DNA of 32,000 bases from positions 1 to 32,000 of the forward strand of contig NZ_SODD01000008.1 in NCBI RefSeq assembly GCF_004365815.1. The letters are read 5' to 3'. Positions within the stretch are counted from its first letter, which is position 1. Every line of letters begins with the position of its first letter. Source of the DNA: Breznakia blatticola (GTDB lineage: Bacteria > Bacillota_I > Bacilli_A > Erysipelotrichales > Erysipelotrichaceae). The notes under the pieces are model-generated. The model was not told where the DNA came from, did no database searches, and saw only the letters and a list, made by a program, of their open reading frames with translations. Of this stretch, positions 4,045 to 26,836 are shown one piece after another. The translations under genes were made by a program, and so were the position numbers.

Positions 4045-4356
4045 ATGGAAAGATACAATTTGACGATTAAAGACATACTAGACAAGCAATTTCATGTGGA
4101 TATGAAAGGGTATGCAACTGGTGAAGTAGATAGTTTTTTAGATAAAATTATTGAAGATTACGAAGCATATGGTGCCTTTATTGAAGAACTTGGGCAACAT
4201 TTACATCGTTATGAAGATGAAAATAAAAAACTACAAGCGAAAATCAAAGAGCTTGAAGCACAATTAAATTATGAATGTGATAAACAAAACCAAGTAGATT
4301 ATGTGGATTTGTTGAAGCGAATTTCAAATTTAGAAGCAGAAGTATTTAAAAGATAA
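4045..4356 (+). CDS. gpsB: Cell-cycle/divisome protein GpsB (DivIVA-domain protein), 103 aa
   Basis: N-terminal DivIVA domain (LTIKDILDKQFHVDMKGYATGEVDSFLDKIIEDYE) followed by a coiled coil. AGGTGA SD. Divergent from recU and directly upstream of rnpB, as in B. subtilis. Confidence 0.9.
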   Translation: MERYNLTIKDILDKQFHVDMKGYATGEVDSFLDKIIEDYEAYGAFIEELGQHLHRYEDENKKLQAKIKELEAQLNYECDKQNQVDYVDLLKRISNLEAEVFKR

Positions 4357-4692
4357 CGCAGGGTAATCGCTGCTTGCAAAAGTAGAGGAAAGTCCATGCT
4401 CGCACAATCTGTGATGATTGTAGTGTTTGTGCTAGATAAAAAAATAAATCTAGGTAGCGAAAGCTAACGGCTGACAAAATCCTAAGGGCAACTATGGATG
4501 GCGTCTTTAAAAGTGCCACAGTGACGATGCTTTATGGAAACGTAAAGACTGGAACGGGTAAACCCCACAAGCGAGAAACCCAAATATTGGTAGGGGAACT
4601 CTAGCGAACGAACCGAAGTTCAATAGGGACACGTAAGTGTAGATAAATGGTTACCACTCTTCGGAGTACAGAACATGGCTTATATGCGTTAT
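4353..4692 (+). ncRNA. rnpB: RNase P RNA (bacterial, Firmicute/type-B-like)
   Basis: Conserved blocks match B. subtilis rnpB: GGGTAATCGCTGC, GAGGAAAGTCCATGCTCGCAC, AAAGTGCCACAGTGACGA, GGTAAACCCC, AAGCGAGAAACCCAAAT, TTGGTAGGGGAAC and ACAGAACATGGCTTA. The P1 helix is ATAACGCA (4353-4360) paired with TGCGTTAT (4685-4692). Ends are approximate, within about 5 nt. Confidence 0.9.
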
Positions 4693-13488: not shown

Positions 13489-14304
13489 ATGAGTAAGATG
13501 GATTATAAAGTTGGCTTTATCGGCTGCGGAAATATGGGTTCTGCAATTTTAAAAGGAATGCTTCAAGCAAGCCTTTTTGATGCAAACAATATTTATGTAT
13601 ATGCAGCAGATGAAACACAACACGAGAAGTTAAAAAATGAATTTGGAATACGTATTGCAAAAGACAATAAGGAAATTATGGAGCTTTGTGATTTTGTAAT
13701 ACTGGCAGTAAAACCGATTCATTTTCCAAGTGTTATTGAAGAAATTAAAGATGTGTATACATCAGATAAAGTCATTGTCAGTATTGCAGCTGGTATGATG
13801 ATTGATAAGATTCGTAAGTTATTTGAACAAGATGTAAAGGTTGTACGAATTATGCCAAATACACCTGCATTAGTAAATGAAGGCGCAAGTGGAATTTGTG
13901 CAAGTGATAACATCAGTGTTCAAGAAAACCAAGTCGTAACATCAATTTTTTCAGCATTGGGTGTAACTGTCCAAATACCCGAAGAAAAGATGCACGGTGT
14001 AGTTGCTGTAAGTGGTTCAAGTCCTGCCTATGTATTTATGTTTATTGATGCATTGATTCAAGGTGGAATGAAACAAGGACTATGTTATGAAGATGCGCGA
14101 TTACTTGCAAGTCAAAGCGTACTTGGAGCAGCAAAGTTGGTTCAAGAAAGTGAAGACTCTTTGGATCAATTGGTTAAAAATGTATGTAGTCCAGGAGGGA
14201 CAACGATAGAAGCAGTTCATGTCCTGGAAGATAAACAGCTAAAAGACATCGTAATGGAAGCGATGGAGGCATGTGCAAATAAGTCTAGAAAGATGAGTGA
14301 GTAA
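13489..14304 (+). CDS. proC: Pyrroline-5-carboxylate reductase, 271 aa
   Basis: Rossmann motif VGFIGCGNMGSAI. RIMPNTPALV. C-terminal SPGGTT signature. Confidence 0.93.
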   Translation: MSKMDYKVGFIGCGNMGSAILKGMLQASLFDANNIYVYAADETQHEKLKNEFGIRIAKDNKEIMELCDFVILAVKPIHFPSVIEEIKDVYTSDKVIVSIAAGMMIDKIRKLFEQDVKVVRIMPNTPALVNEGASGICASDNISVQENQVVTSIFSALGVTVQIPEEKMHGVVAVSGSSPAYVFMFIDALIQGGMKQGLCYEDARLLASQSVLGAAKLVQESEDSLDQLVKNVCSPGGTTIEAVHVLEDKQLKDIVMEAMEACANKSRKMSE

Positions 14305-14306
14305 GT

Positions 14307-15203
14307 ATGTTACAAACACAGAACTTAAAACATAACGGTGATGAGCGGACCAAAAAGTTCGTTAAGAATATTGCATTTATCATTGCAGGATGTTTTATCT
14401 CTTCTTGTGGGATTTCATTTTTCTTAACTCCAGTGCATATATATTCCAGTGGGATTTTAGGAGTTGCGCAAATTGTGCGTACCCTTTTGGCAGATGTTGG
14501 TATTGTATTTCCCTTTGAAATTAGTGGGATTATCAACTTCTGTTTCAATATTCCATTATTTATTTTAGCGTATACAAAAATCTCAAAACGATTCTTCTCG
14601 TTGACTTTGCTTTGTATTGCTATGCAGACAACTTTTTTATCTATTATTCCCGTACCCTCTGCACCTGTCGTTCATGATGCACTGGCATCTTGTTTAGCCG
14701 GTGGGTTTATTGCTGGGTGTGGAACTGGAATAATGCTTCGAGCTCATGGTTCAAGCGGTGGACTTGATATTGTTGGGGTCTATCTATCCCAACGAAATCC
14801 AAACTTTAGTGTGGGGAAGTTATCATTGATGGTAAATACTTGTTTATTTATCGTTTGTGCGATCTTGTTTAATATCGATACAGCGATTTACTCAATGATT
14901 TACTTGGTGGTATCAACCTTTGTGATTGACAAGGTTCACTATCAAAACATCAATATGACAGCGATGATCTTTACAAGAAATAAAGATATTGTTGATTTTA
15001 TTACGCATGAATTACATCGTGGTGTAACCTACTGGCAAGGGGTTGGTGGTTACACAGAAAAAGAAACCTATGTACTTATGACAGCAGTGAGTAAAGATGA
15101 AGTGCATTTCTTAAAACATCAAATTAAGAAAATTGATCGTCATGCCTTTATCATATTCTCTGAAGGATTAAGTGTCAGTGGAAATTTCTTGAAACATCTA
15201 TAA
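14307..15203 (+). CDS. YitT-family membrane protein (DUF161 repeats + DUF2179 C-terminal domain), 298 aa
   Basis: Multi-TM N-terminal part with GSSGGLDIVG. The soluble C-terminal domain GVTYWQGVGGYTEKETYVLMTAVSKDEV is typical of YitT proteins. Confidence 0.85.
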   Translation: MLQTQNLKHNGDERTKKFVKNIAFIIAGCFISSCGISFFLTPVHIYSSGILGVAQIVRTLLADVGIVFPFEISGIINFCFNIPLFILAYTKISKRFFSLTLLCIAMQTTFLSIIPVPSAPVVHDALASCLAGGFIAGCGTGIMLRAHGSSGGLDIVGVYLSQRNPNFSVGKLSLMVNTCLFIVCAILFNIDTAIYSMIYLVVSTFVIDKVHYQNINMTAMIFTRNKDIVDFITHELHRGVTYWQGVGGYTEKETYVLMTAVSKDEVHFLKHQIKKIDRHAFIIFSEGLSVSGNFLKHL

Positions 15204-15214
15204 GAGGGAAACTA

Positions 15215-16921
15215 ATGAAAAAATTATTAAACGTATTACTTGTCTTCGTTATGGCATTTACACTTGTTGCATGTTCTTCTGATGAAGAAGTAAGTACAAC
15301 TGGACTGTCAAATGATAACGAAAACAAAGAATTTACAAAATATGTAGATTCAATGATTGATGAAGTCTTTGATGAAACAGACTATAGCTTGAATTACTTT
15401 TTAGCAGATAAAGAAAAATTTGGATATAGTGATGATGTTCTATATGAACAAAGCATTCCTACATTTGAAGACTTTAAAGTATCACAAGAACAAGGTGATG
15501 CAGTATATGAAAAAATCAAGAGTTTCAAGCGAGATGACTTGAGTGAGCAACAACAATTGACATATGATGTACTCTTAGATGCATATGAACCAGTAAAAGA
15601 TATTCCATTAGAAGATTTATACTACCTTACTACTAATGATTTGGACTATAACCATGGAGCACCAGGTAATATTCCGTTTAACTTTTATTTCTATACATTC
15701 CGTAATGAACAAGATGTGAAATCCTATTTAAATCTATTAGAAACAACGGAATCATATTTTGGAGAACTTATCGCATTCGAACAAGTTCGACAAGATAAAG
15801 GTTTTGGAATGCAACCAATGCATATTGCCAAAACAAAAGAAGTTGTTGAAACATATGTAAGTGGAGATCATTCATTCCTTATTGATTCATTTAAAACAAG
15901 AATCGATGAAGTTGATGGTATATCCAAAAAAGATAAGGCAGCATACATTAAGAAAAATGAAGAGTTAGTAAATGGAACTTTACAAACAGCTTATACAAAT
16001 TTAGCAACTGGACTTGATAACTTACAAGTCAAAGCACTCGATCAAGGTATGGCTCAATATGCAAACGGAAAAGAACTGTTTGCGAAACAAATTAAAGATA
16101 CAACAGGTATGGATATTGAAGAATATCGTACATATGTGAATGATATGGCTACACACTACTTAAATGAAGCACAAGAAAACTATTCGAACATTAGTTTCGC
16201 TAGTAGTGTTTACACGAAATTGAAAGATCCGAATGAAGTATTAGAAGACTTAAGCAAAAAAACAAAAGATGATTTTCCTGCAGTAAGAGATTTAGAGTAT
16301 GAAATGGAAATCGTACCAGAATCAATGCGTAAAATTTTAGGAAATACTGCAGCTGCATACTTTGTTAGTCCAATTGATGAAGTACATACAAAAGAAAGAA
16401 TGATCTTAAATGGAGACTTTACCGGAGAAGATTTTTCAACGATTGCCCATGAAGGATACCCAGGTCATATGTACCAAAAACAATACTACAAAGAACAAGA
16501 ACAACCATTGATTCGTTCGCTTTTAGATTACAGTGGATATACTGAAGGTTGGGCAAATTATGTGCAATTCTTTACAACGAAATATGCACTTAAACCAGAA
16601 GCCGCAAAAGCAAATGATTTAGCAGAAAGATGGCAATATTGTTTAATCTTACAAGCGGATTTAGAAATCAATTATGATGGAAAAACAAAGGAAGAAATGA
16701 TGGAGTCACTTAAGATCTTTGGAGATATTGATGAAATATATTCAACCCTTGCAGTTTCACCTGGAATTTTCGCAGAATATTATGTAGGTGGTCAAAAATT
16801 CATCGATTTATATGAAAAATATGATGATGTTGATCCTAAAAAATTCCATGAAGCGATCCTAAAAGTAGGACCAGCACCGTTCTCAGTTGTTGAAGAATAT
16901 GTAGAGAAAGCCCTTAAATAG
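15215..16921 (+). CDS. DUF885-family lipoprotein (putative metallopeptidase-like), 568 aa
   Basis: Lipoprotein signal peptide with lipobox LVAC-S. DUF885 hallmark HEGYPGHMYQ near the C-terminal third. Confidence 0.85.
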   Translation: MKKLLNVLLVFVMAFTLVACSSDEEVSTTGLSNDNENKEFTKYVDSMIDEVFDETDYSLNYFLADKEKFGYSDDVLYEQSIPTFEDFKVSQEQGDAVYEKIKSFKRDDLSEQQQLTYDVLLDAYEPVKDIPLEDLYYLTTNDLDYNHGAPGNIPFNFYFYTFRNEQDVKSYLNLLETTESYFGELIAFEQVRQDKGFGMQPMHIAKTKEVVETYVSGDHSFLIDSFKTRIDEVDGISKKDKAAYIKKNEELVNGTLQTAYTNLATGLDNLQVKALDQGMAQYANGKELFAKQIKDTTGMDIEEYRTYVNDMATHYLNEAQENYSNISFASSVYTKLKDPNEVLEDLSKKTKDDFPAVRDLEYEMEIVPESMRKILGNTAAAYFVSPIDEVHTKERMILNGDFTGEDFSTIAHEGYPGHMYQKQYYKEQEQPLIRSLLDYSGYTEGWANYVQFFTTKYALKPEAAKANDLAERWQYCLILQADLEINYDGKTKEEMMESLKIFGDIDEIYSTLAVSPGIFAEYYVGGQKFIDLYEKYDDVDPKKFHEAILKVGPAPFSVVEEYVEKALK

Positions 16922-16931
16922 GGCTTTTTTT
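16907..16931 (+). terminator. Intrinsic terminator after the DUF885 gene
   Basis: AAAGCCC/GGGCTTT stem spanning the stop codon, followed by a T-run. Confidence 0.7.
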
Positions 16932-17039
16932 AATGCTCAAAAGATAAAAATTATAAAATATACATTTCTCAAGCGTATGGTGCGACAAGGAGTGAAACTA
17001 TCGTTTACAATAAATGTGTAAAAAAAATGCTTATCCTAC

Positions 17040-17067
17040 TTGAAATATGGGAATTGTGTGGTATAGT
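17040..17067 (+). promoter_or_regulatory. Candidate promoter of the PTS operon
   Basis: TTGAAA (17040-17045), 16-nt spacer, TGgTATAGT (17059-17067, extended -10). Confidence 0.55.
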
Positions 17068-17081
17068 AAGAGTGTAAAGAG

Positions 17082-17093
17082 TGGTATATACCA
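17082..17093. promoter_or_regulatory. Perfect 12-bp palindrome TGGTATATACCA, candidate GntR/HutC operator
   Basis: Self-complementary and contains the GTnTAnAC core typical of HutC-subfamily operators. It lies between the -10 box and the IIB SD. A half-site copy, GTGGTATA, overlaps the -10 box 23 bp upstream. Confidence 0.5.
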
Positions 17094-17109
17094 AGAAAGG
17101 GGAACGAAA

Positions 17110-17412
17110 ATGACAAATATTTTGCTAGTCTGTACAGCAGGAATGTCAACAAGTGCTCTTGTAAAGAAAATGCAAGAAGCAGCAACTGAAATGGGTGTGG
17201 AAACAAACATCTGGGCAGTTGGAGATGCTGACAGTGAAGATGCAATTAAGCAAGCTGATGTAATTTGCTTAGGACCTCAAGTTCGTTATTTAGAAGCAAA
17301 AATGAAAGAACGCGTAAATAACGAAAAACCAGTAATGGTTATCGACATGGCAGCTTATGGAACAATGAATGGTAAAAAAGTTCTTGAAAGCGCTTTAGCT
17401 TTAGTTAAGTAG
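17110..17412 (+). CDS. PTS Lac/Cel-family EIIB component, 100 aa
   Basis: ORF call trimmed to the ATG at 17110 (AAGGGGA SD). Active-site context ILLVCTAGMSTSALV with the phospho-Cys. Confidence 0.92.
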   Translation: MTNILLVCTAGMSTSALVKKMQEAATEMGVETNIWAVGDADSEDAIKQADVICLGPQVRYLEAKMKERVNNEKPVMVIDMAAYGTMNGKKVLESALALVK

Positions 17413-17493
17413 TTTTATTAGGGTGAGTAAATCGGTAGGAAAAGTGAAGATCGATTTATTACATAGTATTGATTCATTTAAAAGGAGAGGAAC

Positions 17494-18906
17494 ATGAAAG
17501 GTTTTACAAACTGGATGGAGCAACATTTTGTTCCAGTCGCAGCGAAAATTGGTTCGCAAAAACACTTAGTTGCAATTCGTGATGCGTTTATCGCAATTAT
17601 GCCAATCACAATGGCAGGAGCATTTGCAACATTACTAAACGTATTCTTTAGAGATTTACCAAACGAATGGTGGGGAGCAGGAAACAGTTTCGTTTCAAAC
17701 TCATTCGTATCTGGAATTATTGGAGTTAACGGTAACGTTTGGTGGGGTACATTAGCAATCTTATCAATGGTATTCGTATTTGCTCTTGGTTACCAACTTG
17801 CAAAAGTTTACAAAGTTCCAGCATTAGCTGGTGGGGTAGTTGCTTTTGCAGCATTCATTACAGTTACACCACAATCTGCATTTGCAGCAATTGACTTAGG
17901 GGAAACAGTTTTAGGTGCTGATGCACTAGAAATTTTCAAAACAGCTGGATTAACACTTGGTACAGCAGATGCTGGAGGAACTGTTATTTCTGGAATTGGA
18001 GCTTGGGGAAATCTTAACTGGTCGTACCTAAACGCTGGTGGATTATTTACAGCATTAATCGTTGGGTTAGTAACTGGAGTTATTTACTGTAAATTAATGT
18101 TAGCTAAAATTACAATTAAATTACCAGATTCAGTACCACCTGCAGTATCGAAAGCATTCGCATCAATTATTCCTGGAGTAATCGCAATTTACATTGCTGG
18201 TATCGCTGCTTACTTAGTAAACTTATGGACTGGTTCTTCAATTGGAGATCTTATCTTCGAAAACGTACAAGCACCATTCTTAGCGTTATCTCAAGGATTT
18301 GGAGCAGTAATCATCGTAGTTATCGCAGTACAATTATTCTGGTTCTTTGGAATCCACGGAACAAACGTACTTGCACCAGTATTAGATGGTGTATACTTAA
18401 CAGCTACTACTGAAAACAACGTTGCACACACTGCTGGAAAAGCAATGGAATACATGTGGACTCGTGGATCATTTGATGCATACGTTTGGATGGGTGGAGC
18501 TGGATGTTCAATTGCCTTAATTATCGCAATCTTCATCTTCTCAAAACGTCAAGAATCAAAAACAATTGCAGCACTATCTGCACCAATGGGATTTTTCAAC
18601 ATTAACGAACCAATCGTATTTGGTATGCCAATCGTGCTTAACCCAATTTACTTCATCCCTTGGATGTTAGTACCAATTGTACTTACAATCATTGCATATG
18701 CAGCTACAGCAGCTCAAATTGTTCCACCTGTATATGTACCAGTACCTTGGATTATGCCTCCAGTAGTTTATGCAATTCTTGCAACTGGTGGTAATATATT
18801 AGCGGGTGTATTAGCACTTGTTAACCTTGTAATAGGAGTTGTTATTTGGGGAATCTTCGTTCTTATCGGTAACAAAGTTGATTTAGCTGATACAGAAGCT
18901 GAATAG
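17494..18906 (+). CDS. PTS Lac/Cel-family EIIC permease, 470 aa
   Basis: N-terminus FVPVAAKIGSQKHLVAIRDAFIAIMPITMAGAF is characteristic of cellobiose/lichenan-type IIC. Polytopic membrane protein with a GGAGAGG SD. Confidence 0.93.
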   Translation: MKGFTNWMEQHFVPVAAKIGSQKHLVAIRDAFIAIMPITMAGAFATLLNVFFRDLPNEWWGAGNSFVSNSFVSGIIGVNGNVWWGTLAILSMVFVFALGYQLAKVYKVPALAGGVVAFAAFITVTPQSAFAAIDLGETVLGADALEIFKTAGLTLGTADAGGTVISGIGAWGNLNWSYLNAGGLFTALIVGLVTGVIYCKLMLAKITIKLPDSVPPAVSKAFASIIPGVIAIYIAGIAAYLVNLWTGSSIGDLIFENVQAPFLALSQGFGAVIIVVIAVQLFWFFGIHGTNVLAPVLDGVYLTATTENNVAHTAGKAMEYMWTRGSFDAYVWMGGAGCSIALIIAIFIFSKRQESKTIAALSAPMGFFNINEPIVFGMPIVLNPIYFIPWMLVPIVLTIIAYAATAAQIVPPVYVPVPWIMPPVVYAILATGGNILAGVLALVNLVIGVVIWGIFVLIGNKVDLADTEAE

Positions 18907-18919
18907 GACTTAACATTTT

Positions 18920-18946
18920 AAGGAGGATATTCAATCCTCCTTTTGC
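18920..18946 (+). terminator. Terminator-like hairpin between EIIC and EIIA
   Basis: AAGGAGGAT (18920-18928), loop ATTCA, ATCCTCCTT (18934-18942), followed by a short T-run (TTTT). Possibly a partial terminator or an RNA-stability element. Confidence 0.45.
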
Positions 18947-18967
18947 ACTAATTATAGGAGGTTAGTT

Positions 18968-19279
18968 ATGGAAGGATTAGAATTAGTATGTTTTCAAATC
19001 ATTTCAAATGTTGGGGGAGCTAGAAGTTGCTTTATTGAAGCAATCCAACATGCGAAAGCTGGGGAATATGAAAAAGCACAAGAATCGATCACTGAAGGAG
19101 AGAAATTCTTCACAGAAGGACATCACGCACACGCAAAATTGATTCAACAAGAAGCTAATGGAGAATTGGAAAAAGTAACATTATTGTTACTTCATGCAGA
19201 GGATCAATTAATGAGTGCTGAAGCATTCAAGATTTTAGCAAACGAGTTTATTGACGTATACAAAAGATTAGATAAGTAG
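18968..19279 (+). CDS. PTS Lac/Cel-family EIIA component, 103 aa
   Basis: Three-helix-bundle EIIA pattern: IISNVGGARSCFIEAIQHAKAGEYEKAQ ... HHAHAKLIQQEA ... LLLLHAEDQLMSAE. Confidence 0.92.
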   Translation: MEGLELVCFQIISNVGGARSCFIEAIQHAKAGEYEKAQESITEGEKFFTEGHHAHAKLIQQEANGELEKVTLLLLHAEDQLMSAEAFKILANEFIDVYKRLDK

Positions 19280-19292
19280 TAAGGAGTAAAAG

Positions 19293-19508
19293 ATGATTAA
19301 AATTTCGTGTCCGATGAAACAAGACTTTATTATTGAAATTGTTGAAGGAATTGATAAATACAAATATACTTTTGAAAAAAAAGAAGGTATTAACTTATTT
19401 TTTGCAGTAGATGCACAAGATATGGAAGATGCAATCGCTACAGCGAAAGCAGCAATTAAAGCAACAGAGATTGGTTCCGTTTTATACTTTTCAGTTTCGG
19501 TTGCATAG
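19293..19508 (+). CDS. Hypothetical small cytoplasmic protein, 71 aa
   Basis: AAGGAG SD and tight operon packing after EIIA. I could not assign a confident family from the sequence alone. Confidence 0.6.
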   Translation: MIKISCPMKQDFIIEIVEGIDKYKYTFEKKEGINLFFAVDAQDMEDAIATAKAAIKATEIGSVLYFSVSVA

Positions 19509-19537
19509 TATATAATAATAGAAGTTAGGTGGTAAAC

Positions 19538-19696
19538 ATGAAGAAAGAAAATGCATTAGTACTTTTAGGATTAGGTTGTTTGTTAATTTGCTTTTATCCG
19601 CTGATGGGAAATAGTATACCAATGTTAGTTAGTGGTGTTGTCATCGCAGGGTATGGTGCCTTTCAATTGTTTAAAAACAGAAAGAAGGATAAATAA
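19538..19696 (+). CDS. Hypothetical 52-aa two-TM micro-protein (MKKENALVLLGLGCLLICFYPLMGNSIPMLVSGVVIAGYGAFQLFKNRKKDK)
   Basis: AGGTGG SD 7 nt upstream. TAATG overlap with the next gene. Two hydrophobic helices and a basic C-terminus. Below the ORF-track size cutoff. Confidence 0.5.
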   Translation: MKKENALVLLGLGCLLICFYPLMGNSIPMLVSGVVIAGYGAFQLFKNRKKDK

Positions 19697-20142
19697 TGGA
19701 AGCAACTAGATTGATGCGCGGTAAAAAGGAAACGTGTTATAAACTTTTTATGGAGTCGATATTAGCAGATATCAATGCAAACAGCGAAGATGGTAAGCAA
19801 TATACAGAAAGTGATTTACATTCTGGATTTACTTATTACAAGCAATTAAAAACAAAGATGGGACAAGAAGGACGTGTTAAGGTAGAATTGACTGAACTTG
19901 TACCAAATGAAGTATATGTTGCAAAATTCTTTAGTGCGCAAGGTGTTAATACGGTATCGTATCATCTTGAAGATGAAGATGAAGATCTTTTTGCTCTTAC
20001 TTATGAAGAAGATTTTATTTCTGATAAAACAAGCAAAAACTTGAATTTTAGTTTAATGAATAAATTATTCTCTCGTTCAAGTAAAAAAAAGATGGATCTT
20101 ATGTTTAACCAACTTCAAACATTACTAGATAGTAAAGAATAG
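19696..20142 (+). CDS. DUF3284-like protein, 148 aa
   Basis: Size, the N-terminal CYKLFMESILADI pattern and the position inside a Lac/Cel PTS operon next to DUF871 fit my recollection of DUF3284. This is not a searched hit. Confidence 0.65.
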   Translation: MEATRLMRGKKETCYKLFMESILADINANSEDGKQYTESDLHSGFTYYKQLKTKMGQEGRVKVELTELVPNEVYVAKFFSAQGVNTVSYHLEDEDEDLFALTYEEDFISDKTSKNLNFSLMNKLFSRSSKKKMDLMFNQLQTLLDSKE

Positions 20143-20165
20143 TGGTTAACACTATTCTTTTTTTA
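20134..20165 (+). terminator. Intra-operon intrinsic terminator between the DUF3284-like and DUF871 genes
   Basis: 11-bp stem AAAGAATAGTG/CACTATTCTTT spanning the stop codon, loop GTTAA, then a T-run. Confidence 0.7.
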
Positions 20166-20184
20166 AAAGAAAGGGAAGAAAAAG

Positions 20185-21273
20185 ATGGCTCGATTAGGAA
20201 TATCTGTATATCCAGAACATGCACCTTTAGAAAAAAATAAAGCGTATATTAAAGATGCTGCTGAATGTGGATTTACAAGAATCTTCACTTGTCTATTAAG
20301 TGTTGAAGGAAGAACAAAACAAGAAATATTAGAAGAATTTAGAGAAATGATCGATTATGCACATACATTCAACATGGAAGTAATTTTAGATGTTGCACCA
20401 TTTGTGTTTGAAAAGTTAGGTGCAAGTTATGATGATCTATCATTTTTTAAAGAAATGCATGCTGATGGAATTCGTTTAGATGAAGGATTTGGTGGGCAAA
20501 AAGAAAGCCTTATGACGTACAATAAAGAAGGCTTAAAAATCGAAATTAATGCAAGTTTTGGAAATGGATATATTGATAATATTATTTCTCATTATCCAGA
20601 CAAAGATAAAATGATTACTTGTCACAATTTTTATCCACAAAGATACACAGGTTTAAGTGAAAAACATTTCAATTTATGCAATAATATGATTAAGAAACAC
20701 GGCTTAAAAATTGCAGCCTTCGTTTCTAGTCAAGCAAAGGGAACGTTTGGGCCTTGGCCAGTGAACGAAGGATTGTGTACACTTGAATCACATCGTGATT
20801 TACCAATTGATGTGCAAATGCGTCACTTGGTAGCGACAGGTATGATTGATGATGTAATTATCGGAAACCAATTTGCTACACGTGAAGAATTAGAAACTTG
20901 TGCGAAAATTCAACCAGGTTTATTGACGTTTAAAATTGATTACGAAAAAGAATTGCATCCAACAGAACGCAAAGTAATTTTTGAACATGAACATTATGTT
21001 CGTGGAGATATGAGTGAGTACATGGCACGTTCGACGTTTCCACGTGTAACGTATGCAAGTGAAAGTGTACCACCAGAAAACACAAGGGACTTACGTCGTG
21101 GGGATGTAATCGTTGTTAATGATAACTACTCACGTTACAAAGGTGAGTTACACATCGTATTAAAAGATATGCCAAATGATGGGCGCAAGAATGTTATCGG
21201 ACGAATTCCTGATAATGAAATGATGTTACTTGATTACATCGAACCTTGGAGACCATTCGGTTTTATGGAATAG
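20185..21273 (+). CDS. DUF871 / MupG-like 6-phospho-sugar hydrolase (6-phospho-N-acetylmuramidase family), 362 aa
   Basis: N-terminus LGISVYPEH followed by a TIM-barrel-like region and a C-terminal beta domain, as in DUF871 proteins. Encoded with a PTS and a GntR regulator. Confidence 0.8.
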   Translation: MARLGISVYPEHAPLEKNKAYIKDAAECGFTRIFTCLLSVEGRTKQEILEEFREMIDYAHTFNMEVILDVAPFVFEKLGASYDDLSFFKEMHADGIRLDEGFGGQKESLMTYNKEGLKIEINASFGNGYIDNIISHYPDKDKMITCHNFYPQRYTGLSEKHFNLCNNMIKKHGLKIAAFVSSQAKGTFGPWPVNEGLCTLESHRDLPIDVQMRHLVATGMIDDVIIGNQFATREELETCAKIQPGLLTFKIDYEKELHPTERKVIFEHEHYVRGDMSEYMARSTFPRVTYASESVPPENTRDLRRGDVIVVNDNYSRYKGELHIVLKDMPNDGRKNVIGRIPDNEMMLLDYIEPWRPFGFME

Positions 21274-21300
21274 CATTTTTGCTTGAAGGGGGGAGAACGC

Positions 21301-21969
21301 ATGGATGTTCCTGTTTATAAGAAAATCCAACAGGAAATGCTGGAAATGATAAAAGATTTACCACCCAATTCACCAATTCCAAGTGAGCGTGATCTCACGA
21401 AACGTTTTGATGCAAGTCGAATGACGGTGCGCAAAGCAGTTTCGGCATTGGTTGATGAGGGGTATCTATATCGTGACAGTAATCGGGGAACGTTTGTTGC
21501 TGATAGCACCCTTCATAAAAAGAATACATTGATTAACACAGAAGATATAGATAGTCTTACATATAAGATGATTTATTTCGATGTGAAAGCGAGTTCAGGT
21601 GATGATGTACAAGCAGCTTTACGAATAAGTGATGATGAACCAGTGGTTCGAATGATTCGCTTAGTAAGTAAAAATGAAGTGCCACAATGTATTGAAGAAA
21701 TATATATTCGTCGCTTAAATTTAAGTGATGAAGAATTAAGAAATCTTCCAAATTGGAAAGATTTCAATCGCTTGTATAGTGAAGGAAGTTTAACTTCACG
21801 TTTTAAGCCGGTGATGGTACCACCACAATATGCACATATGTTAGCGGTTCGCGTAAACGAACCAATCATCCTTGTCGAAAACATTGTGAATCGTATTAGT
21901 GGGGAACCAGTCATCTTTATGAAGGTGTACAACAACCCAGCAGAAAAAGTCATTGAAATCGTAACATAG
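21301..21969 (+). CDS. GntR/HutC-family transcriptional regulator (wHTH + UTRA domain), 222 aa
   Basis: ORF call trimmed to the ATG at 21301 (GGGGGGAG SD). PLYKQI-like opening VPVYKKIQQEM. PSERDLTKRFDASRMTVRKAVSALVDEGYLYRDSNRGTFV. UTRA-sized C-terminal domain. Confidence 0.9.
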   Translation: MDVPVYKKIQQEMLEMIKDLPPNSPIPSERDLTKRFDASRMTVRKAVSALVDEGYLYRDSNRGTFVADSTLHKKNTLINTEDIDSLTYKMIYFDVKASSGDDVQAALRISDDEPVVRMIRLVSKNEVPQCIEEIYIRRLNLSDEELRNLPNWKDFNRLYSEGSLTSRFKPVMVPPQYAHMLAVRVNEPIILVENIVNRISGEPVIFMKVYNNPAEKVIEIVT

Positions 21970-21973
21970 TCTA

Positions 21974-22002
21974 AAGACCGCTCTATAATGGCGGTTTTTT
22001 TG
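21974..22002 (+). terminator. Intrinsic terminator after the GntR gene
   Basis: ACCGC/GCGGT stem (21977-21981 pairs with 21991-21995) followed by a T7 tract. Confidence 0.55.
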
Positions 22003-22057
22003 TATATATTAGGAATTTTGAGTGATTTTGTGAATAGAGTATTGAAAGGAGTTTTCT

Positions 22058-22231
22058 ATGAAATATTTACATATCATATATCAAGTAAGTAGTTGGCTAG
22101 CCATTGGATTGGGATTACTTGTAACATTTAAAATTCTTCCACTTGATTTTACAAGTGTGATTTTCTTTTTCACATTTATTATGTTTGTTTCTTTGATATT
22201 GATGCGAAAACAAGATCATCATGATTCGTAA
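22058..22231 (+). CDS. Hypothetical 57-aa two-TM micro-protein (MKYLHIIYQVSSWLAIGLGLLVTFKILPLDFTSVIFFFTFIMFVSLILMRKQDHHDS)
   Basis: GAAAGGAG SD 7 nt upstream of the ATG. The 3' end overlaps the ABC exporter start by 11 nt, and that start has no SD of its own, which implies coupling. Below the ORF-track cutoff. Confidence 0.55.
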   Translation: MKYLHIIYQVSSWLAIGLGLLVTFKILPLDFTSVIFFFTFIMFVSLILMRKQDHHDS

Positions 22232-24377
22232 AAAGAAGTATGCATGTGTATTGCAGCGCGATGACTATGATTGTGGTGTTGCAGCATTAGCAAGTGTATT
22301 GCAACATTATGGATATACCTATAGTTATGAAGCATTACGTGAACAGTTAGGCGTTCAACTTCAAGGAACAAGAGTTCATGATTTGGTAGATGTTTTGCAC
22401 TCTTATGGATTTTTAGCACAAGCAGTTCGTACGAGTGTATCAGATTTACATAATGATATGATCTATCCTATTATTTTACAGGTTAGTAATTCACAAGGGC
22501 AGTGGCATTATATCTTACTTTATAAAATCACAAGAAAAGAAGAATACATTATTGCAGATCCAATTGCTGGTGTAAAAAAGATATCCAAGGAAGAATTGGA
22601 AACTATCTTTGGTGGGATTGTCATTGTATTAGTAAAAGAACATGATGTAAAACTAGCAAGTGTGAAAAGTCAGTCAATGTTTGGTTTGTTTGCGAATTTG
22701 ATGTTGCCATATAAGAAACTAATTTTACAAGTTATCTTTATGTCCATCTTTTTGACTGTGTTTGGCATTGTATCATCTCTTTGCTCAAAGATTGTGATGG
22801 ATGAATTAATTCCCTACAACAAAGGACAATTGCTAGTTGTGTATTTGGTATTCTTCTCGTTTGTCTTGTTGCTACAAAATACATTATCAGCAGCAAGAGA
22901 ACATGTCTTACTTTTCTTTTCAAGAAAGATTGATATTCCTTTATTACTTGGTTATTTCAAGCACGTTCTGTATCTATCATTTAGTTATTTTAAAAATCGC
23001 AAAGTGGGGGATATCCTAACGCGATTTCAAGATGCAATTACGATAAAGGAAGTGTTTTCAAATGTAGCGATTTCCTTATTGATGGATTGTGTCTTGGCGA
23101 TTTGTTCTTCAGTGATTTTATTTACGATGAATCGCACGTTATTTTCTATTTTGTTTGTGATTGTATTATTGAATATTGTCTTAATCTATGTCTTTAAGAA
23201 ACCATATAAGGCGATTAATATGAAGCAAATGGAAGCTAATTCGCAAATGAATGCAACATTAATTGAAACCTTGCAAAATATGGATACAGTGAAAGCGCAA
23301 AACAATGAAAAGCAACGTTTACTTGCAATAGAAAAAGCTTTTATTAAAACACTGACCATTAACTATAAAGAAGGAAAATTATCTATTCTACAATCTTTTT
23401 TATCCAATAGTATAAATGGACTAGCAAACTATATTTTTCTAGGTGTAGGTGCATACTACATCATGCAACAGAAAATGAGTATTGGTGATTTGTTGGTGTT
23501 TCAAACACTATCACAATATTTTATGGAACCGATACAAAGTTTAGTTTCCTTGCAGCTACGGTTTCAAGAAGTTGGAATTTCCATTGATCGGCTTCGAGAG
23601 TTAATGGAACTTGATAGTGAGGAAATGCAAGATGTAGCAATTACACAGTTTACATTAGATGCACCAATTGTATTTCATGATGTAAGTTTTGCATATGGAA
23701 AACAAGATTACCTATTTAAACAATTACGCTTTACGATTCAGCCTGGTCAAGTTATTGGGCTTGTTGGTGAAAGTGGTGGTGGGAAGACTTCACTTGTTCG
23801 TTTATTACTTCGCTATTATGAAGTAGAACATGGATCAATTACTATTGGTGATTATGATATTAAAGATTTGTGTATGCATGAATTGCGAAAGAAAATTGCA
23901 TATGTACCACAAGAAGTACAGTTATTCTCTGGGACATTATTAGATAATTTGAAACTTGCTAAACCAGATGCATCATATGAAGAGATTGTTCGAGTATGTA
24001 AACAAGTAGGAATACACGAATGGATTGATGGATTGGAAAAGCGGTATTTAAGTATGATACAAGAAGGTTCAAGTAATATTTCCGGAGGACAAAAACAACG
24101 AATTGGAATTGCTCGAGCCTTGCTTAAACAACCAGATATTTTTATCTTTGATGAAGTAACGAGTAATTTGGATAGTAAAAGTGAAGCGATGATTACAGAT
24201 ATTATATTTAATCAACTTGAAGGTTACACAAGAATACTCATTGCACATCGTCTATCTACAATTCGGTCGTGTGATGTAATTCATGTACTCAACCAGGGAA
24301 AAATATTGGAAAGTGGAAGTCATGAGGAATTATATACACGAAAAGGCTTATATTATCGTATGTTAGAAAAAACATAA
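22221..24377 (+). CDS. Peptidase-C39-domain ABC exporter (bacteriocin/peptide cleavage-export type, ComA/LagD/LcnC-like), 718 aa
   Basis: N-terminal C39 domain with Q12, catalytic C18 (QRDDYDCGVAAL), His (GQWHYILLYK) and Asp (IIADP). Six-TM ABC membrane domain. Walker A GESGGGKTS, signature ISGGQKQRIGIARAL, Walker B IFIFDE, H-loop IAHRL. Confidence 0.95.
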   Translation: MIRKKKYACVLQRDDYDCGVAALASVLQHYGYTYSYEALREQLGVQLQGTRVHDLVDVLHSYGFLAQAVRTSVSDLHNDMIYPIILQVSNSQGQWHYILLYKITRKEEYIIADPIAGVKKISKEELETIFGGIVIVLVKEHDVKLASVKSQSMFGLFANLMLPYKKLILQVIFMSIFLTVFGIVSSLCSKIVMDELIPYNKGQLLVVYLVFFSFVLLLQNTLSAAREHVLLFFSRKIDIPLLLGYFKHVLYLSFSYFKNRKVGDILTRFQDAITIKEVFSNVAISLLMDCVLAICSSVILFTMNRTLFSILFVIVLLNIVLIYVFKKPYKAINMKQMEANSQMNATLIETLQNMDTVKAQNNEKQRLLAIEKAFIKTLTINYKEGKLSILQSFLSNSINGLANYIFLGVGAYYIMQQKMSIGDLLVFQTLSQYFMEPIQSLVSLQLRFQEVGISIDRLRELMELDSEEMQDVAITQFTLDAPIVFHDVSFAYGKQDYLFKQLRFTIQPGQVIGLVGESGGGKTSLVRLLLRYYEVEHGSITIGDYDIKDLCMHELRKKIAYVPQEVQLFSGTLLDNLKLAKPDASYEEIVRVCKQVGIHEWIDGLEKRYLSMIQEGSSNISGGQKQRIGIARALLKQPDIFIFDEVTSNLDSKSEAMITDIIFNQLEGYTRILIAHRLSTIRSCDVIHVLNQGKILESGSHEELYTRKGLYYRMLEKT

Positions 24378-24388
24378 GAAAGGAATTT

Positions 24389-24871
24389 ATGAAACATATA
24401 AAAATTAGTGAACATGCATCATTACAATTACAACAATTAATTACTGAACCGATTCATCAAATACAAGTGTATGAATTTGAACGATATCTGCAACAATTCA
24501 TCAATCGTATCCAACTTCAACAAGTCGATGTTCATGGTCCATTAATTCATAAATTGTGTGGAAGTACATTTACAGATGAAGGTGATTTATTGTTGGATTA
24601 TACGTTGATGATGCAAACAAACACTATACATGAATCATTTTCAACCATTCAGCAAATCACGCTTGAAGATTGCTTGTGTGTAGAATTTTGCGACCATCCA
24701 AGATTTTTTGATTTATCACATCAAAAGTTAAGTGTGTATTTGTATGAACATGAATATGCTAGCACTGGAGAACTATATACATTGTTTTATGAGAATAGTG
24801 AAGAACGAATTCATGCAGTGATGTATGTTCCTTTAGAAGGAATAACACATGAAACTATACAACGTACATGA
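24389..24871 (+). CDS. Hypothetical cytoplasmic His/Cys/Gln-rich protein, 160 aa (GyrI/SbmC-like fold suspected)
   Basis: GAAAGGA SD. Sits between the exporter and the adaptor, and overlaps the adaptor gene by 23 nt. No signal peptide or TM. The predicted pattern looks like a duplicated beta-alpha-beta-beta module. CxCx3CxH cluster (C95, C97, C101, H103). Confidence 0.7.
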   Translation: MKHIKISEHASLQLQQLITEPIHQIQVYEFERYLQQFINRIQLQQVDVHGPLIHKLCGSTFTDEGDLLLDYTLMMQTNTIHESFSTIQQITLEDCLCVEFCDHPRFFDLSHQKLSVYLYEHEYASTGELYTLFYENSEERIHAVMYVPLEGITHETIQRT

Positions 24872-26060
24872 TTTGAAGTTTACACGCTTTTTCTTTGATC
24901 GCAAACCGCCAAAGTATATATGGATTACTTTGCTTGTGACTGTATTGTTTACGAGTCTTATTGCTTGGGGTTCATGTTTTCTTTTGAAACCCTATGTTGT
25001 CTATGGACAAGGCAATATCGTCGCAAAAGATAGTCATTATGTAACTAGTAATGTACAAGGTGCTGTTATCTCAATAGAAACAAGTGAAGGTGAATATGTA
25101 GAAAATGGCGATATCTTATTTGTTGTTAGTGATGGGAAAAATGGTAGTGAAGTAGAAGCTTTACTCGAGCAATACAATCAAGCAAAAGAAAAACTATCCA
25201 TTATGGATTTATATGAAAGTTCATTGCGTGAGAAGGTAAATCATTTACAAAATCATGGATTGCAACAAGAATACTATGGAAAAGTCGAATACTATTTACT
25301 ACAAGTAAAAGAAGAACAAATCTCACGAAAACGAGTAGAAGAAAGTTTATATCAAAAAAATCAAAAGCTTTCCCAAGAGCAAAAAACTCTTGCAAGCATC
25401 AGTGATCCTATGGAAAAGGAGGGAAAGCAAAGTAGTGTAGAAGCTTTGCAAGACGAAGTAAAACAGCTGCAGCAAGAACTACAAAACATTCCACAAAGTG
25501 ATAAACTATTTTATCAATTCATCAGTGAGTTAGGTACACAAAGAACTCAAGTAGAAACCCAAAAACAAGAGTTAGAGGGAAATCATTTACTAGCATCAAC
25601 AAATGAATCAACCTATGTGATTCGTGCAACTAGTGAAGGATATGTACACTATTTAAATCCTATGTACGAAGGAGTAAGCATTCAAGCAAATGGAGTAGTA
25701 GCAAGTATTAGTAAAGATGAACCAAATCGTTGGGTAGTGGAAACGTATGTCGATGCAAATGATATAGCAAAGATTAAACTTGGTGATCCAGTGTTCATAC
25801 AACTACATGGTTTGAATGAACACCTTTATCCAAATATACCAGGAATGGTAGTGAGTATTGATCAAGGCACGTTGCAACAAGAGACAAGTAATGGACAAGT
25901 TCTTGTATATCGGATGATTGTTATGATGGACTATGCAAAGGTCAAAGACACAAAGAGTTTTAAACAATTAAAAAAATCGATGCCAGTAACCTGTAAAATT
26001 GTTTATGAAGAAGAAAGCTATTTAGACTATGTATTATCCTTACTCAACTTTACATCATAG
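24849..26060 (+). CDS. HlyD-family secretion adaptor / bacteriocin export accessory protein (ComB/LcnD-like), 403 aa
   Basis: N-terminal TM (YIWITLLVTVLFTSLIAWGSCFLL). Lipoyl-like segment (GAVISIETSEGEYVENGDILFVV). Long Q/E/K coiled coil and a C-terminal beta-barrel region (GDPVFIQLHG...). Confidence 0.85.
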   Translation: MKLYNVHDLKFTRFFFDRKPPKYIWITLLVTVLFTSLIAWGSCFLLKPYVVYGQGNIVAKDSHYVTSNVQGAVISIETSEGEYVENGDILFVVSDGKNGSEVEALLEQYNQAKEKLSIMDLYESSLREKVNHLQNHGLQQEYYGKVEYYLLQVKEEQISRKRVEESLYQKNQKLSQEQKTLASISDPMEKEGKQSSVEALQDEVKQLQQELQNIPQSDKLFYQFISELGTQRTQVETQKQELEGNHLLASTNESTYVIRATSEGYVHYLNPMYEGVSIQANGVVASISKDEPNRWVVETYVDANDIAKIKLGDPVFIQLHGLNEHLYPNIPGMVVSIDQGTLQQETSNGQVLVYRMIVMMDYAKVKDTKSFKQLKKSMPVTCKIVYEEESYLDYVLSLLNFTS

Positions 26061-26065
26061 AATTG

Positions 26066-26090
26066 AAAGAATCTTAGGATTCTTTTTTTT
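26066..26090 (+). terminator. Intrinsic terminator after the exporter/adaptor operon
   Basis: AAAGAATC/GATTCTTT stem, loop TTAG, followed by a T8 tract. Confidence 0.8.
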
Positions 26091-26135
26091 CGAGGTGAAT
26101 ATAATGATGAGCACCTTGCTTAGAAAGGAGGAACT

Positions 26136-26471
26136 ATGGAACTTGTATTACCAAAACACTATGTTGCAGTAGATAACAAATTGGAACATTTTGCACAAGG
26201 GTATTGGACGCATACTGGACATGCGCAGTGGACGTACACAATAACAAAGACCGATTGTAAAAATATCTCTTGGTGGTTGAGTGTTGGCTCAACGGTCTCA
26301 AGTGCGATTGCATATTTTTGTGCGGCTGCTGCACCGTATGCTAGTGCAATATCAACTGTGCTAGGTGGAGCTGCAAAAGTATTTAAATCAGGTGCGAACG
26401 GAAATGGAATTCGTGTGTATTTCCACACAATGGCTTGGGGAAGAACCCCTCGATGGGCAAGTTATCTATAA
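26136..26471 (+). CDS. Hypothetical Trp/Ala/Gly-rich 111-aa protein with a central hydrophobic hairpin and a cationic tail (candidate exporter cargo or membrane-active protein)
   Basis: Strong AAGGAGG SD 6 nt upstream of the ATG. Bracketed by two good terminators, so probably monocistronic. Internal VLGG at residues 75-78 (GG codons at 26364-26369). No family recognised. Confidence 0.7.
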   Translation: MELVLPKHYVAVDNKLEHFAQGYWTHTGHAQWTYTITKTDCKNISWWLSVGSTVSSAIAYFCAAAAPYASAISTVLGGAAKVFKSGANGNGIRVYFHTMAWGRTPRWASYL

Positions 26472-26475
26472 GCCG

Positions 26476-26505
26476 GAAACCAGAGAAATCTGGTTTTTCT
26501 TATTT
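26476..26505 (+). terminator. Intrinsic terminator after the 111-aa ORF
   Basis: AAACCAGA/TCTGGTTT stem, loop GAAA, followed by TTTTTCTTATTT. Confidence 0.7.
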
Positions 26506-26541: not shown

Positions 26542-26570
26542 TTGACACAATGAAACATACGTCATATAAT
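26542..26570 (+). promoter_or_regulatory. Consensus sigma-A promoter of the his operon
   Basis: TTGACA (26542-26547), exactly 17 nt spacer, TATAAT (26565-26570). Confidence 0.75.
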
Positions 26571-26576
26571 AATTCT

Positions 26577-26836
26577 AACAATAAACGATGATAAGAAATA
26601 GTAACGTATCTAAAAAGCGTAGAGACTTCTTGGTTGGTGAAAAAGAAGATTGGCAGATTCGTGAACACGTCTTGGAGTTATGAAGGTGAAATAAGTAGTC
26701 TTCATCGGTGTCCCTGCAACCGTTATCTTGCTAGAGTATGATAGTACTCGAAGAGGTTGGTGCTGTGAAGTATCAATAAAAAAAGGTGGAACCACGTAAG
26801 TTAAACTTTCGTCCTTTGGATGGAAGTTTTTTTTGT
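26577..26836 (+). promoter_or_regulatory. T-box riboswitch leader, His specifier (CAC)
   Basis: GA/K-turn CGATGA. Specifier loop AAATAGTA ... GAA-CAC-G (CAC at 26666-26668) closed by ACGTATC/GATTCGT. AGAGA and GGTGAAA distal motifs. F-box CCGTTA (26720-26725). T-box AAAGGTGGAACCACG (26783-26796). Terminator AACTTTCGTCC/GGATGGAAGTT followed by T8 (26804-26836). Confidence 0.85.

Follow-up and report, generated by a model that had tools for sequence, protein, structure and literature searches.

What does a peptide-cleaving exporter secrete when no peptide with a canonical leader is encoded beside it? This question is raised by a cassette at positions 22058-26505 of a 32,000-nucleotide (nt) stretch of Breznakia blatticola (contig NZ_SODD01000008.1, positions 1 to 32,000; hereafter, the window), in which a peptidase-containing ATP-binding cassette (ABC) transporter (PCAT) and a HlyD-type adaptor are encoded together with proteins of 57, 160, and 111 amino acids (aa). 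An original prediction, made from the sequence letters, considered this five-gene architecture undescribed and listed the 111-aa gene among three unusual partner genes. The view of an undescribed architecture did not hold up. Comparisons of sequence and gene order indicate that the block is a distant relative of the rtg locus of Streptococcus pneumoniae, unusual in detail and not a new kind of system, and that the 111-aa gene, to judge from its N-terminus, is the missing cargo gene, with an Rtg-type signal sequence whose Gly-Gly (GG) end has degenerated to Q-G. We consider it quite probable that the block constitutes a regulator-less, single-cargo version of an rtg-type PCAT secretion system.

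The export machinery and its rtg-type relatives

The pneumococcal rtg locus encodes the PCAT RtgA, the GyrI-like protein RtgX, the adaptor RtgB, and several GG peptides that have a highly conserved common signal sequence (Wang, Medlin, Nguyen, Disbennett, and Dawid, mBio 2020; PMC7018657). In that work, rtgX is recorded in 21.1% of strains, which equals the figure for rtgB (18.6% intact plus 2.5% disrupted; PMC7018657, Table 2), and the supplementary methods name "rtgAXB" fragments and constructs. Most rtg peptide genes are followed by small genes that the authors term immunity-like, and the regulator pair RtgR/RtgS is of the Rgg/SHP type (PMC7018657). The window cassette has the same gene order (PCAT, GyrI-like protein, adaptor, cargo), its genes likewise abutting closely or overlapping. 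Its five open reading frames (ORFs), all on the + strand within 22058-26471, and their two overlaps were confirmed by the ORF list at the coordinates given earlier:

22058-22231 (+): gene for the 57-aa protein with two predicted transmembrane (TM) helices; strong ribosome-binding site AAAGGAG; 11-nt overlap with the exporter start
22221-24377 (+): gene for the 718-aa RtgA-like PCAT; C39 protease, six TM helices, ATPase domain
24389-24871 (+): gene for the 160-aa RtgX-like cytoplasmic protein; GyrI-like fold in the model; stop overlaps the adaptor start by 23 nt
24849-26060 (+): gene for the 403-aa RtgB/ComB-like HlyD-family adaptor; N-terminal TM anchor
26136-26471 (+): gene for the 111-aa putative cargo precursor; strong ribosome-binding site
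26136-26201 (+): Rtg-type signal sequence of the cargo, 22 aa, MELVLPKHYVAVDNKLEHFAQG
26202-26471 (+): predicted mature cargo, 89 aa; putative bacteriocin-like secreted protein

The C39-ABC/HlyD export cassette foreseen by the original prediction, with its catalytic residues intact, was borne out by domain searches and by alignment with PCAT1 of Clostridium (Acetivibrio) thermocellum. The Pfam models Peptidase_C39 (2.9e-30), ABC_membrane (3.4e-39), and ABC_tran (5.2e-30) all matched the 718-aa protein above their gathering thresholds, and its residues Q12, C18, H96, and D113 align with the catalytic residues of PCAT1; judged from these residues, the C39 protease is apparently active. PCAT1 and pneumococcal ComA (PDB 4RY2, 8HF4) have the domain order of the window PCAT (C39, six TM helices, nucleotide-binding domain), and their Gln/Cys/His/Asp catalytic sets align with its own. 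The best NCBIfam model was TIGR01193 (peptide cleavage/export ABC transporter), matched at 499 bits against a cutoff of 523.85, and the window PCAT scored higher against PCAT1 (497 bits) than against ComA (377 bits). To our knowledge, no GyrI-like partner of PCAT1/ComA transporters is known. Their substrates lack a distal N-terminal motif and have an ordinary GG leader (PMC7018657); the window cargo does have such a motif.

Relatives closer than PCAT1 and ComA were found among rtg-type loci. A DNA scan for MEL[VI]LPNNY across 185,579 species-representative genomes returned 33 loci, comprising ~29 in Streptococcus, one in Solobacterium, a genus of Erysipelotrichaceae (L033), one in Eubacterium (L038), and two or three chance matches. 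The window proteins were then compared by BLASTP with all ORFs of the fetched loci, nine of which, from streptococci and Eubacterium, had captured the exporter. The order PCAT, X (the RtgX-like protein), adaptor, GG peptide was observed in all nine and, with the four Erysipelotrichaceae lineages described below, X lies between PCAT and adaptor in 13/13 loci. The window PCAT is 48-52% identical over its full length to the PCATs of these loci (709-724 bits, seven full-length copies). The 403-aa adaptor, which matches HlyD_3 of Pfam (6.6e-13) and TIGR01843 (1.7e-27) and TIGR01000 (2e-13) of NCBIfam, aligns at 31-36% identity (E 1e-73 to 6e-93) with the rtg-type adaptors, which occupy the equivalent gene position. 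Finally, the ORF lying between PCAT and adaptor matches the 160-aa protein in 9/9 exporter-bearing loci (26-30% identity, E 1.6e-14 to 8e-22); seven of these ORFs are full-length (E 8e-22 to 9e-20) and two gave partial alignments, and a full-length alignment (A6) with the streptococcal and Eubacterium counterparts was obtained. At the level of sequence, these alignments and the common gene order show PCAT, X, and adaptor to be homologous to, and syntenic with, their counterparts in rtg-type loci. The 160-aa and 111-aa proteins thus belong largely to a known system, although rtg itself is only partly characterised.

A side observation concerns the decay of such loci. In Streptococcus sp. LysM4 (L018:3626-5023 (+) and L018:5621-5962 (+)), two ORFs make up a broken RtgB-like adaptor, which is probably a pseudogene, echoing the frequent decay of rtgA and rtgB reported in pneumococcus. 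An IS200-like transposase ORF, recognised by eye from the sequence, follows the first GG peptide gene of the same locus.

The 160-aa protein had been put forward for a GyrI-like check, and its structure model answered where profile searches stayed silent. The AlphaFold2 model (pLDDT 92.9, pTM 0.86; five-sequence alignment as input) has the topology E-H-E-E / E-H-E-E-(E), i.e., a duplicated beta-alpha-beta-beta unit, and its top 49 PDB matches in Foldseek all appear to be GyrI-like or of the related SOUL/HEBP fold, including CTR107/Rho-tag (E 7e-7), SAV2435, Rob-C, BmrR-C, EcmrR, CtaZ, STM3175, and SbmC. The model therefore points to a GyrI-like fold, while neither the window protein nor any of its relatives or streptococcal RtgX-like counterparts had any Pfam hit, GyrI-like included, at E<=10. 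TM-scores of 0.58-0.64 were obtained with CTR107, SbmC/GyrI, CtaZ, the GyrI-like domain of STM3175, and the C-terminal domains of BmrR and Rob. Several GyrI-like proteins shield cells by binding a toxic natural product (PDB entry titles), and CtaZ (closthioamide) and STM3175 (albicidin resistance) are among the matches. However, the stand-alone GyrI-like proteins are just 8-15% identical to the 160-aa protein in sequence, and for none of those named is a gene position between PCAT and adaptor known. In a word-indexed search of 5.8 billion proteins, the 160-aa protein had just four relative clusters; this search returned 2-4 clusters per family and missed the streptococcal RtgX homologues, which were later caught by direct BLASTP. 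The description of the protein as His/Cys-rich was literally correct (11 His and 4 Cys), but the richness is not conserved. Across the family only C95 is invariant, and the streptococcal proteins do not keep the His residues; a metal-binding role was therefore rejected.

All five genes recur, in the same order, in three further lineages, as expected if the 57-, 160-, and 111-aa genes belong with this exporter clade, a co-occurrence that the original prediction had proposed to look for. The first lineage is Erysipelotrichaceae bacterium MTC7 (L001-L003), the second a more diverged Breznakia-type contig (L004/L005) whose 160-aa protein is the Breznakia sp. PF5-3 protein P0005, and the third a still more diverged contig (L007). 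The 111-aa protein of the window is 99% identical to a protein labelled "unclassified Breznakia" at NCBI, Breznakia being a genus of Erysipelotrichaceae. Between the window and MTC7, nonsynonymous differences per site (pN) are 0.10-0.19 across the five genes and synonymous differences (pS) 0.61-0.86, with values of 0.18 and 0.61 for the 57-aa gene. Of the five, the cargo gene has changed least, with 84-85% identity to MTC7. We conclude that all five are real genes under purifying selection.

The leader and mature domain of the 111-aa protein

The original prediction found no canonical LSxxELxxIxGG prepeptide, and this stands, since a regular-expression scan for E[LIVM]xx[LIVMFY]xG[GAS] found no such leader in any 25-160-aa ORF of the 32-kb window. 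The leader of the 111-aa protein is of another type. Rtg signal sequences have the form MELVLPNNYV..EEMMYLDGG, e.g., that of RtgC (MELVLPNNYVDLEQEEMMYLDGG; PMC7018657, Fig S3B). The window cargo starts MELVLPKHYV where pneumococcal RtgC starts MELVLPNNYV, with MELVLP and Y9-V10 identical, and the resulting MELVLP..YV is also that of RtgG. In the pneumococcal system, substrate selection by RtgAB proceeds via the -22 to -18 region, including P(-18), and depends far less than selection by ComAB or BlpAB on hydrophobic residues at -15, -12, -7, and -4; the distal motif is not found in ComAB/BlpAB substrates (PMC7018657). We built a leader-only profile from 15 distinct streptococcal leaders and searched it against the 725 ORFs of the window, L001, L004, and L007. 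The cargo ORFs of the four lineages ranked first, with E-values of 1e-6 (a 95-aa paralogue in L004), 1.8e-4 (the 111-aa ORF of the window), 6.5e-3 (that of L007), and 0.05 (that of L001). The best non-cargo ORF scored 1.6, and no other ORF of the window was found. By this measure, the leader is of Rtg type.

The predicted junction between leader and mature part is MELVLPKHYVAVDNKLEHFAQG/YWTH (the slash marks the cut), the leader ending F-A-Q-G; given cleavage after Gly22, its Pro lies at -17 and not at -18. Canonical GG occurs at the aligned leader position of four cargo relatives, all more distant than the sister lineages, establishing by alignment a kinship of the cargo with GG-leader proteins: P0008 (LPKRYDEIEEEEMQYIDGG/YWTHVGHAEWTYT, i.e., EEEEMQYIDGG/YWTHVGHAEWTYT), P0009 (LPTNYVEIEQEEMMYLDGG/AYC), P0012 (VDISEDEMMDINGG/), and P0013 (VDVDQDEMEYVDGG/). 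In P0008 the GG stands directly ahead of YWTH, the mature start that it has in common with the window cargo. An alternative register with cleavage after Tyr23, which would place Pro at -18 and G-Y at -2/-1, was judged less likely because the GG of P0008 precedes YWTH and because hydrophobic residues at -4/-7 fit only the Gly22 register. Residues 1-19 of the cargo are disordered in the AlphaFold2 model. Conservation within the Breznakia-group cargos is 72% in the N-terminal motif, 35% in the rest of the leader, and 62% in the mature domain; this is what recognition through the distal motif would be expected to leave.

Two further observations concern the ends of such leaders. In L004:4448-4735 (+), an extra 95-aa cargo paralogue (hhalign E 3.8e-5) lies between the adaptor and the 112-aa cargo, and its leader, MELIMPNNSLEMNANEMAYVDGS, is in exact Rtg register and canonical except for a GS end. 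A single PCAT would therefore have to deal with a canonical site as well as a G-K-G site. Streptococcal ORFs of ~100 aa were also observed with a perfect Rtg N-terminal leader in which YLDGEGW replaces YLDGG, followed by a very Gly/Ala-rich hydrophobic sequence; the G-x-G ending resembles that of the Breznakia-group cargos. They are located as follows:

L019:6357-6662 (-), YLDGEGW ORF
L023:1592-1897 (-), YLDGEGW ORF
L024:5309-5614 (-), YLDGEGW ORF
L028:6013-6318 (-), YLDGEGW ORF
L043:4073-4378 (+), YLDGEGW ORF
L047:3198-3539 (+), YLDGEGW ORF
L048:4541-4819 (-), YLDGEGW ORF

The predicted mature cargo has 89 aa and a mass of ~9.7 kDa, with a pI of 9.7, 6 Trp, and 35% Gly+Ala+Ser; no TM segment is predicted by Kyte-Doolittle, and the grand average of hydropathy (GRAVY) is 0.06. 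Its basic pI, Trp content, and abundance of Gly, Ala, and Ser give this putative bacteriocin the usual physico-chemical profile of the membrane-active class II members. Its AlphaFold2 model (pLDDT 72) shows, behind the disordered leader, a beta-hairpin and then a helical hairpin, with beta strands at the C-terminus, and a fold search found no PDB match for it (best E 0.39). A GarQ_core match (E 0.085, 13 bits against a cutoff of 33) was dropped as chance-level. The family is rare: searched exhaustively with HMMER, 1.84 billion representative proteins yielded only 8 that match the family profile at E<=1e-3. Two long repeat proteins that matched the cargo profile, P0010 and P0011, were discarded because the matches were compositional; no Pfam stretch passes alone.

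A likeness exists to the large GG-leader class II and microcin class IIa bacteriocins, such as colicin V with its 88-aa mature protein. In those bacteriocins, and as predicted for the window cargo, a short N-terminal leader is removed by a C39 ABC exporter working with a HlyD-type adaptor, the mature protein is Gly/Ala-rich and ~90 aa long, and a small membrane immunity protein is encoded alongside, for which the 57-aa protein is the candidate here. However, the window cargo has no similarity to these bacteriocins in sequence or fold, and its leader is of Rtg type without Gly(-2).

The surroundings of the relatives were also recorded. The metagenomic contig L010 encodes, at 824-1818 (+), two tandem 117-aa cargo relatives with canonical leaders (…YVEIEQEEMMYLDGG); a 59-aa two-TM ORF comes next, beginning ahead of the second gene's stop, a layout typical of bacteriocin and immunity genes. 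On contigs L008 (909-1181) and L009 (874-1152), the start of a non-PCAT ABC ATPase (VGYVGPNGAGKSTTIKML...), which may belong to an immunity-type ABC transporter, lies ~340 bp downstream of P0008. No exporter was seen beside the canonical-GG relatives, on contigs too short to show one (those of P0008 end at the ATPase start).

The 57-aa protein and the surroundings of the cassette

The 57-aa protein, with its two hydrophobic segments, has no Pfam or NCBIfam match, nor do its homologues; these, of 54-60 aa, occupy the equivalent position in MTC7, L004, and L007. Its size and topology match those of the 59-68-aa two-TM ORFs that adjoin cargo genes in L010 and in streptococcal rtg loci, where a 62-68-aa two-TM ORF follows each peptide gene. 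From its size, topology, and linkage we infer that it is the likeliest immunity factor of the cassette, i.e., a candidate immunity or accessory protein. As stated in the original prediction, the cassette contains no recognisable four-helix immunity gene.

Small two-TM immunity-like genes are thus a feature of both loci, as are cargos that are large for GG peptides (mature parts of ~70-105 aa). The window cassette nevertheless differs from rtg in several respects. Its two-TM gene lies upstream and overlaps the PCAT start, whereas in rtg such genes follow the cargo. It has one cargo gene and not several (L004 has two), with a leader that is one residue shorter and ends in Q-G, not G-G, and a mature domain of a different, very rare, unannotated family. 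No RtgR/RtgS regulator is present, whereas the streptococcal loci carry one upstream. The host, finally, is a Breznakia-group member of the Erysipelotrichaceae, of an insect-gut type, and not a streptococcus.

The absence of a histidine kinase/response regulator/pheromone module was confirmed, as the 32-kb window holds no histidine kinase or response regulator gene, and no Rgg or helix-turn-helix regulator was found beside the window cassette or the L007 cassette. The terminators that flank the cassette were confirmed by a terminator scan:

21973-21999 (+): intrinsic terminator of the upstream phosphotransferase system (PTS)/MupG/GntR operon, left cassette boundary; -11.2 kcal/mol, z = -3.5
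26065-26094 (+): AT-rich hairpin and U8 between the adaptor and cargo genes; -11.5 kcal/mol, z = -2.8
26475-26498 (+): intrinsic terminator, right cassette boundary; -11.4 kcal/mol, z = -3.1

The hairpin at 26065-26094 was not reported by the consensus terminator scan and is possibly an attenuator or a weak terminator. Right behind its U-run, a TATAAT hexamer at 26099-26104 (+), 32 nt 5' of the cargo start codon, could give that gene a promoter of its own; no good -35 element lies ahead of it.

The cassette does not appear to be a recent arrival. In L007 (2057-9976), it directly follows ProC-YitT-DUF885, while in the window (13489-26471 compared) this backbone lies further upstream, with a PTS/DUF3284/MupG/GntR operon between DUF885 and the cassette. 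The his operon follows the cassette in the window and a DAPDH gene follows it in L007. The inserted element may be the PTS/MupG operon and not the cassette. Identities between the window and L007 are 30-51% for the cassette and 41-61% for flanking genes; those between the window and MTC7 are 68-85% and 83-97%, respectively, so that the cassette is somewhat more diverged than its flanks. Its GC content is slightly below that of the flanks. Since the GC content is near that of the flanks, the backbone is kept in L007, and the divergence is like that of the flanks, a recently acquired island was not supported; the kept backbone and the near-equal divergence from L007 make the cassette look like a long-standing feature of the lineage.

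The remainder of the window is housekeeping in character, with PBP1, RecU, RNase P RNA, PgsA, CinA, RecA, RNase Y, YmdB, MiaB, ProC, YitT, DUF885, the PTS/MupG/GntR operon, and the his operon. Downstream of the cassette, a perfect TTGACA-17-TATAAT promoter at 26542-26570 (+) precedes a T-box leader at 26579-26819 (123 bits) with its own terminator (26803-26829), ahead of hisZ. The his operon, having a sigma-70 promoter and a T-box leader ahead of hisZ, is therefore T-box-controlled. An RNase P RNA of bacterial class B (276 bits) was observed at 4355-4687 (+), directly 3' of a DivIVA-domain gene.

A proposed route of export, and its alternatives

From these comparisons we infer the following route. 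The 111-aa precursor would be made with its 22-aa Rtg-type signal sequence, and the distal motif MELVLP..Y would direct it to the RtgA-like PCAT, whose C39 domain would cut behind the invariant Gly22 and so remove the leader. Export of the mature protein (89 aa, cationic, and Trp-rich) would then proceed through the ABC core together with the RtgB-like adaptor. The translationally coupled, RtgX-like GyrI-fold protein would work with the machinery in the cytoplasm, where it would most likely bind the hydrophobic precursor or the leader; alternatively, it might protect the producer. The mature product would most likely be a membrane-active bacteriocin against related bacteria, with the 57-aa two-TM protein as the likeliest factor of immunity to it.

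A number of points weigh against this route. The leader has no Gly-Gly (or GA/GS) at -2/-1, the window cargo having Gln at -2, and the leaders of the sister lineages end in GQG, GKG, or GEG (Gln, Lys, or Glu at -2). From the conserved Pro to the last Gly there are 16 residues, one fewer than the 17 of a canonical leader. GG, GA, or GS is treated as required for C39 binding and cleavage (PMC7018657, introduction); because the cut site lacks Gly(-2), cleavage and even export of the cargo are no more than putative. No Pfam or NCBIfam model matches X or the cargo, homologues included, and rtgX is listed as a "GyrI-like hypothetical protein" (PMC7018657). No convincing sigma-70 promoter lies ahead of the 57-aa gene, no Rgg/SHP regulator is encoded in the 32-kb window, and no streptococcal locus has a gene at the place of the 57-aa gene, upstream of the PCAT. 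Lastly, no activity was found for any rtg GG peptide, and a bacteriocin role is speculation by the authors (PMC7018657).

This last point bears on the alternative that survives best, namely that the 89-aa protein, once secreted, serves in signalling, adhesion, or colonisation and that the 57-aa protein is an accessory of the transporter and not an immunity protein. In addition to the missing inhibitory activity of rtg GG peptides, the rtg locus has been linked to colonisation fitness, the GG peptides BriC and VP1 have non-bacteriocin roles, the fold of the cargo matches no known bacteriocin, and its family matches are limited to the chance-level one to GarQ_core. However, the basic pI, the abundance of Trp and of Gly/Ala/Ser, and the amphipathic helical hairpin fit the class II bacteriocin profile, the relatives occur as tandem paralogues with small two-TM genes in the arrangement typical of bacteriocins and their immunity genes, and no receptor or regulator is encoded nearby. 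A non-antimicrobial role is thus conceivable, but we regard it as rather unlikely.

The degenerate cut site bears on a second alternative, in which the 111-aa leader is a relic and the protein, neither cleaved nor exported, acts in the producer (e.g., as an immunity or membrane protein) while the cargo of the PCAT is encoded elsewhere. The loss of Gly(-2) in 5/5 lineages of the clade would agree with this, as would the broken YLDGEGW site of the streptococcal Rtg-type ORFs ahead of their hydrophobic Gly/Ala-rich sequence, the position of the gene behind a hairpin and U-run, where it may be transcribed separately, and the hydrophobic character of the central helical hairpin. Yet Gly(-1) and the MELxLP motif, which would be useless in a protein that is not exported, are conserved; the protein shows neither a Kyte-Doolittle TM segment nor a high GRAVY value; the C39 catalytic residues are kept in all lineages; the window contains no other GG-type ORF; and the linkage of cargo to exporter is kept in 4/4 contigs. 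Either the rtg-type PCAT class tolerates x-G, or x-G proteins are no longer processed; at the window locus we think the latter improbable, and with it the relic.

A generic class II bacteriocin locus (ComAB/BlpAB/LcnCD type), with the 160-aa gene as a passenger and the likeness to rtg confined to PCAT and adaptor similarity, would account for TIGR01193 being the best NCBIfam model, for the TIGR01000 match of the adaptor, and for the clear homology to PCAT1 and ComA, but is very improbable given that the PCAT is far closer to its full-length rtg-type copies than to ComA, that X is homologous and in the same place in every one of the loci from Streptococcus, Eubacterium, and Erysipelotrichaceae, and that the leader carries the Rtg-specific distal motif, which ComAB/BlpAB substrates do not have (PMC7018657).

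The preferred reading, an rtg-type secretion system with the 111-aa protein as its cargo, can be carried one step further. RtgX-type GyrI-fold proteins may be an obligatory, cytoplasmic third component of a distinct Rtg PCAT class, reading the MELxLP motif or chaperoning the hydrophobic cargo of ~90 aa, with the x-G site still processed. With recognition shifted to MELxLP, Gly(-2) could be lost in the Breznakia-group cargos and processing kept. We offer this proposal tentatively and consider it unlikely as it stands; if true, the Rtg exporter class would be spread over Bacilli, Erysipelotrichia, and Clostridia, and C39 peptidases, by processing a single-glycine x-G site, would have a wider specificity than is now accepted.

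The architecture of PCAT, GyrI-like protein, adaptor, and cargo is already known (PMC7018657). What is new here is the occurrence of an rtg-type system in a new bacterial class, a degenerate single-glycine leader, the lack of a dedicated regulator, and a new cargo family. The rtg system has so far been described only in pneumococcus. The finding that RtgA, RtgX, RtgB, and the MELxLP motif are common to Streptococcus, Eubacterium, Solobacterium, and Breznakia-like Erysipelotrichaceae makes the A-X-B triad an old one and, since the module is held in common across these genera, RtgX a part of the system and not a passenger. The locus also shows that a search for LSxxELxxIxGG overlooks entire classes of PCAT substrates. 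That the distal motif has outlasted the Gly-Gly site constitutes a natural experiment on substrate recognition and cutting by the Rtg PCAT class, and the minimal cassette, with its one cargo gene, one candidate immunity gene, and no regulator, is, for learning the functions of Rtg cargos and RtgX, a simpler model of such a system than the highly variable pneumococcal locus.

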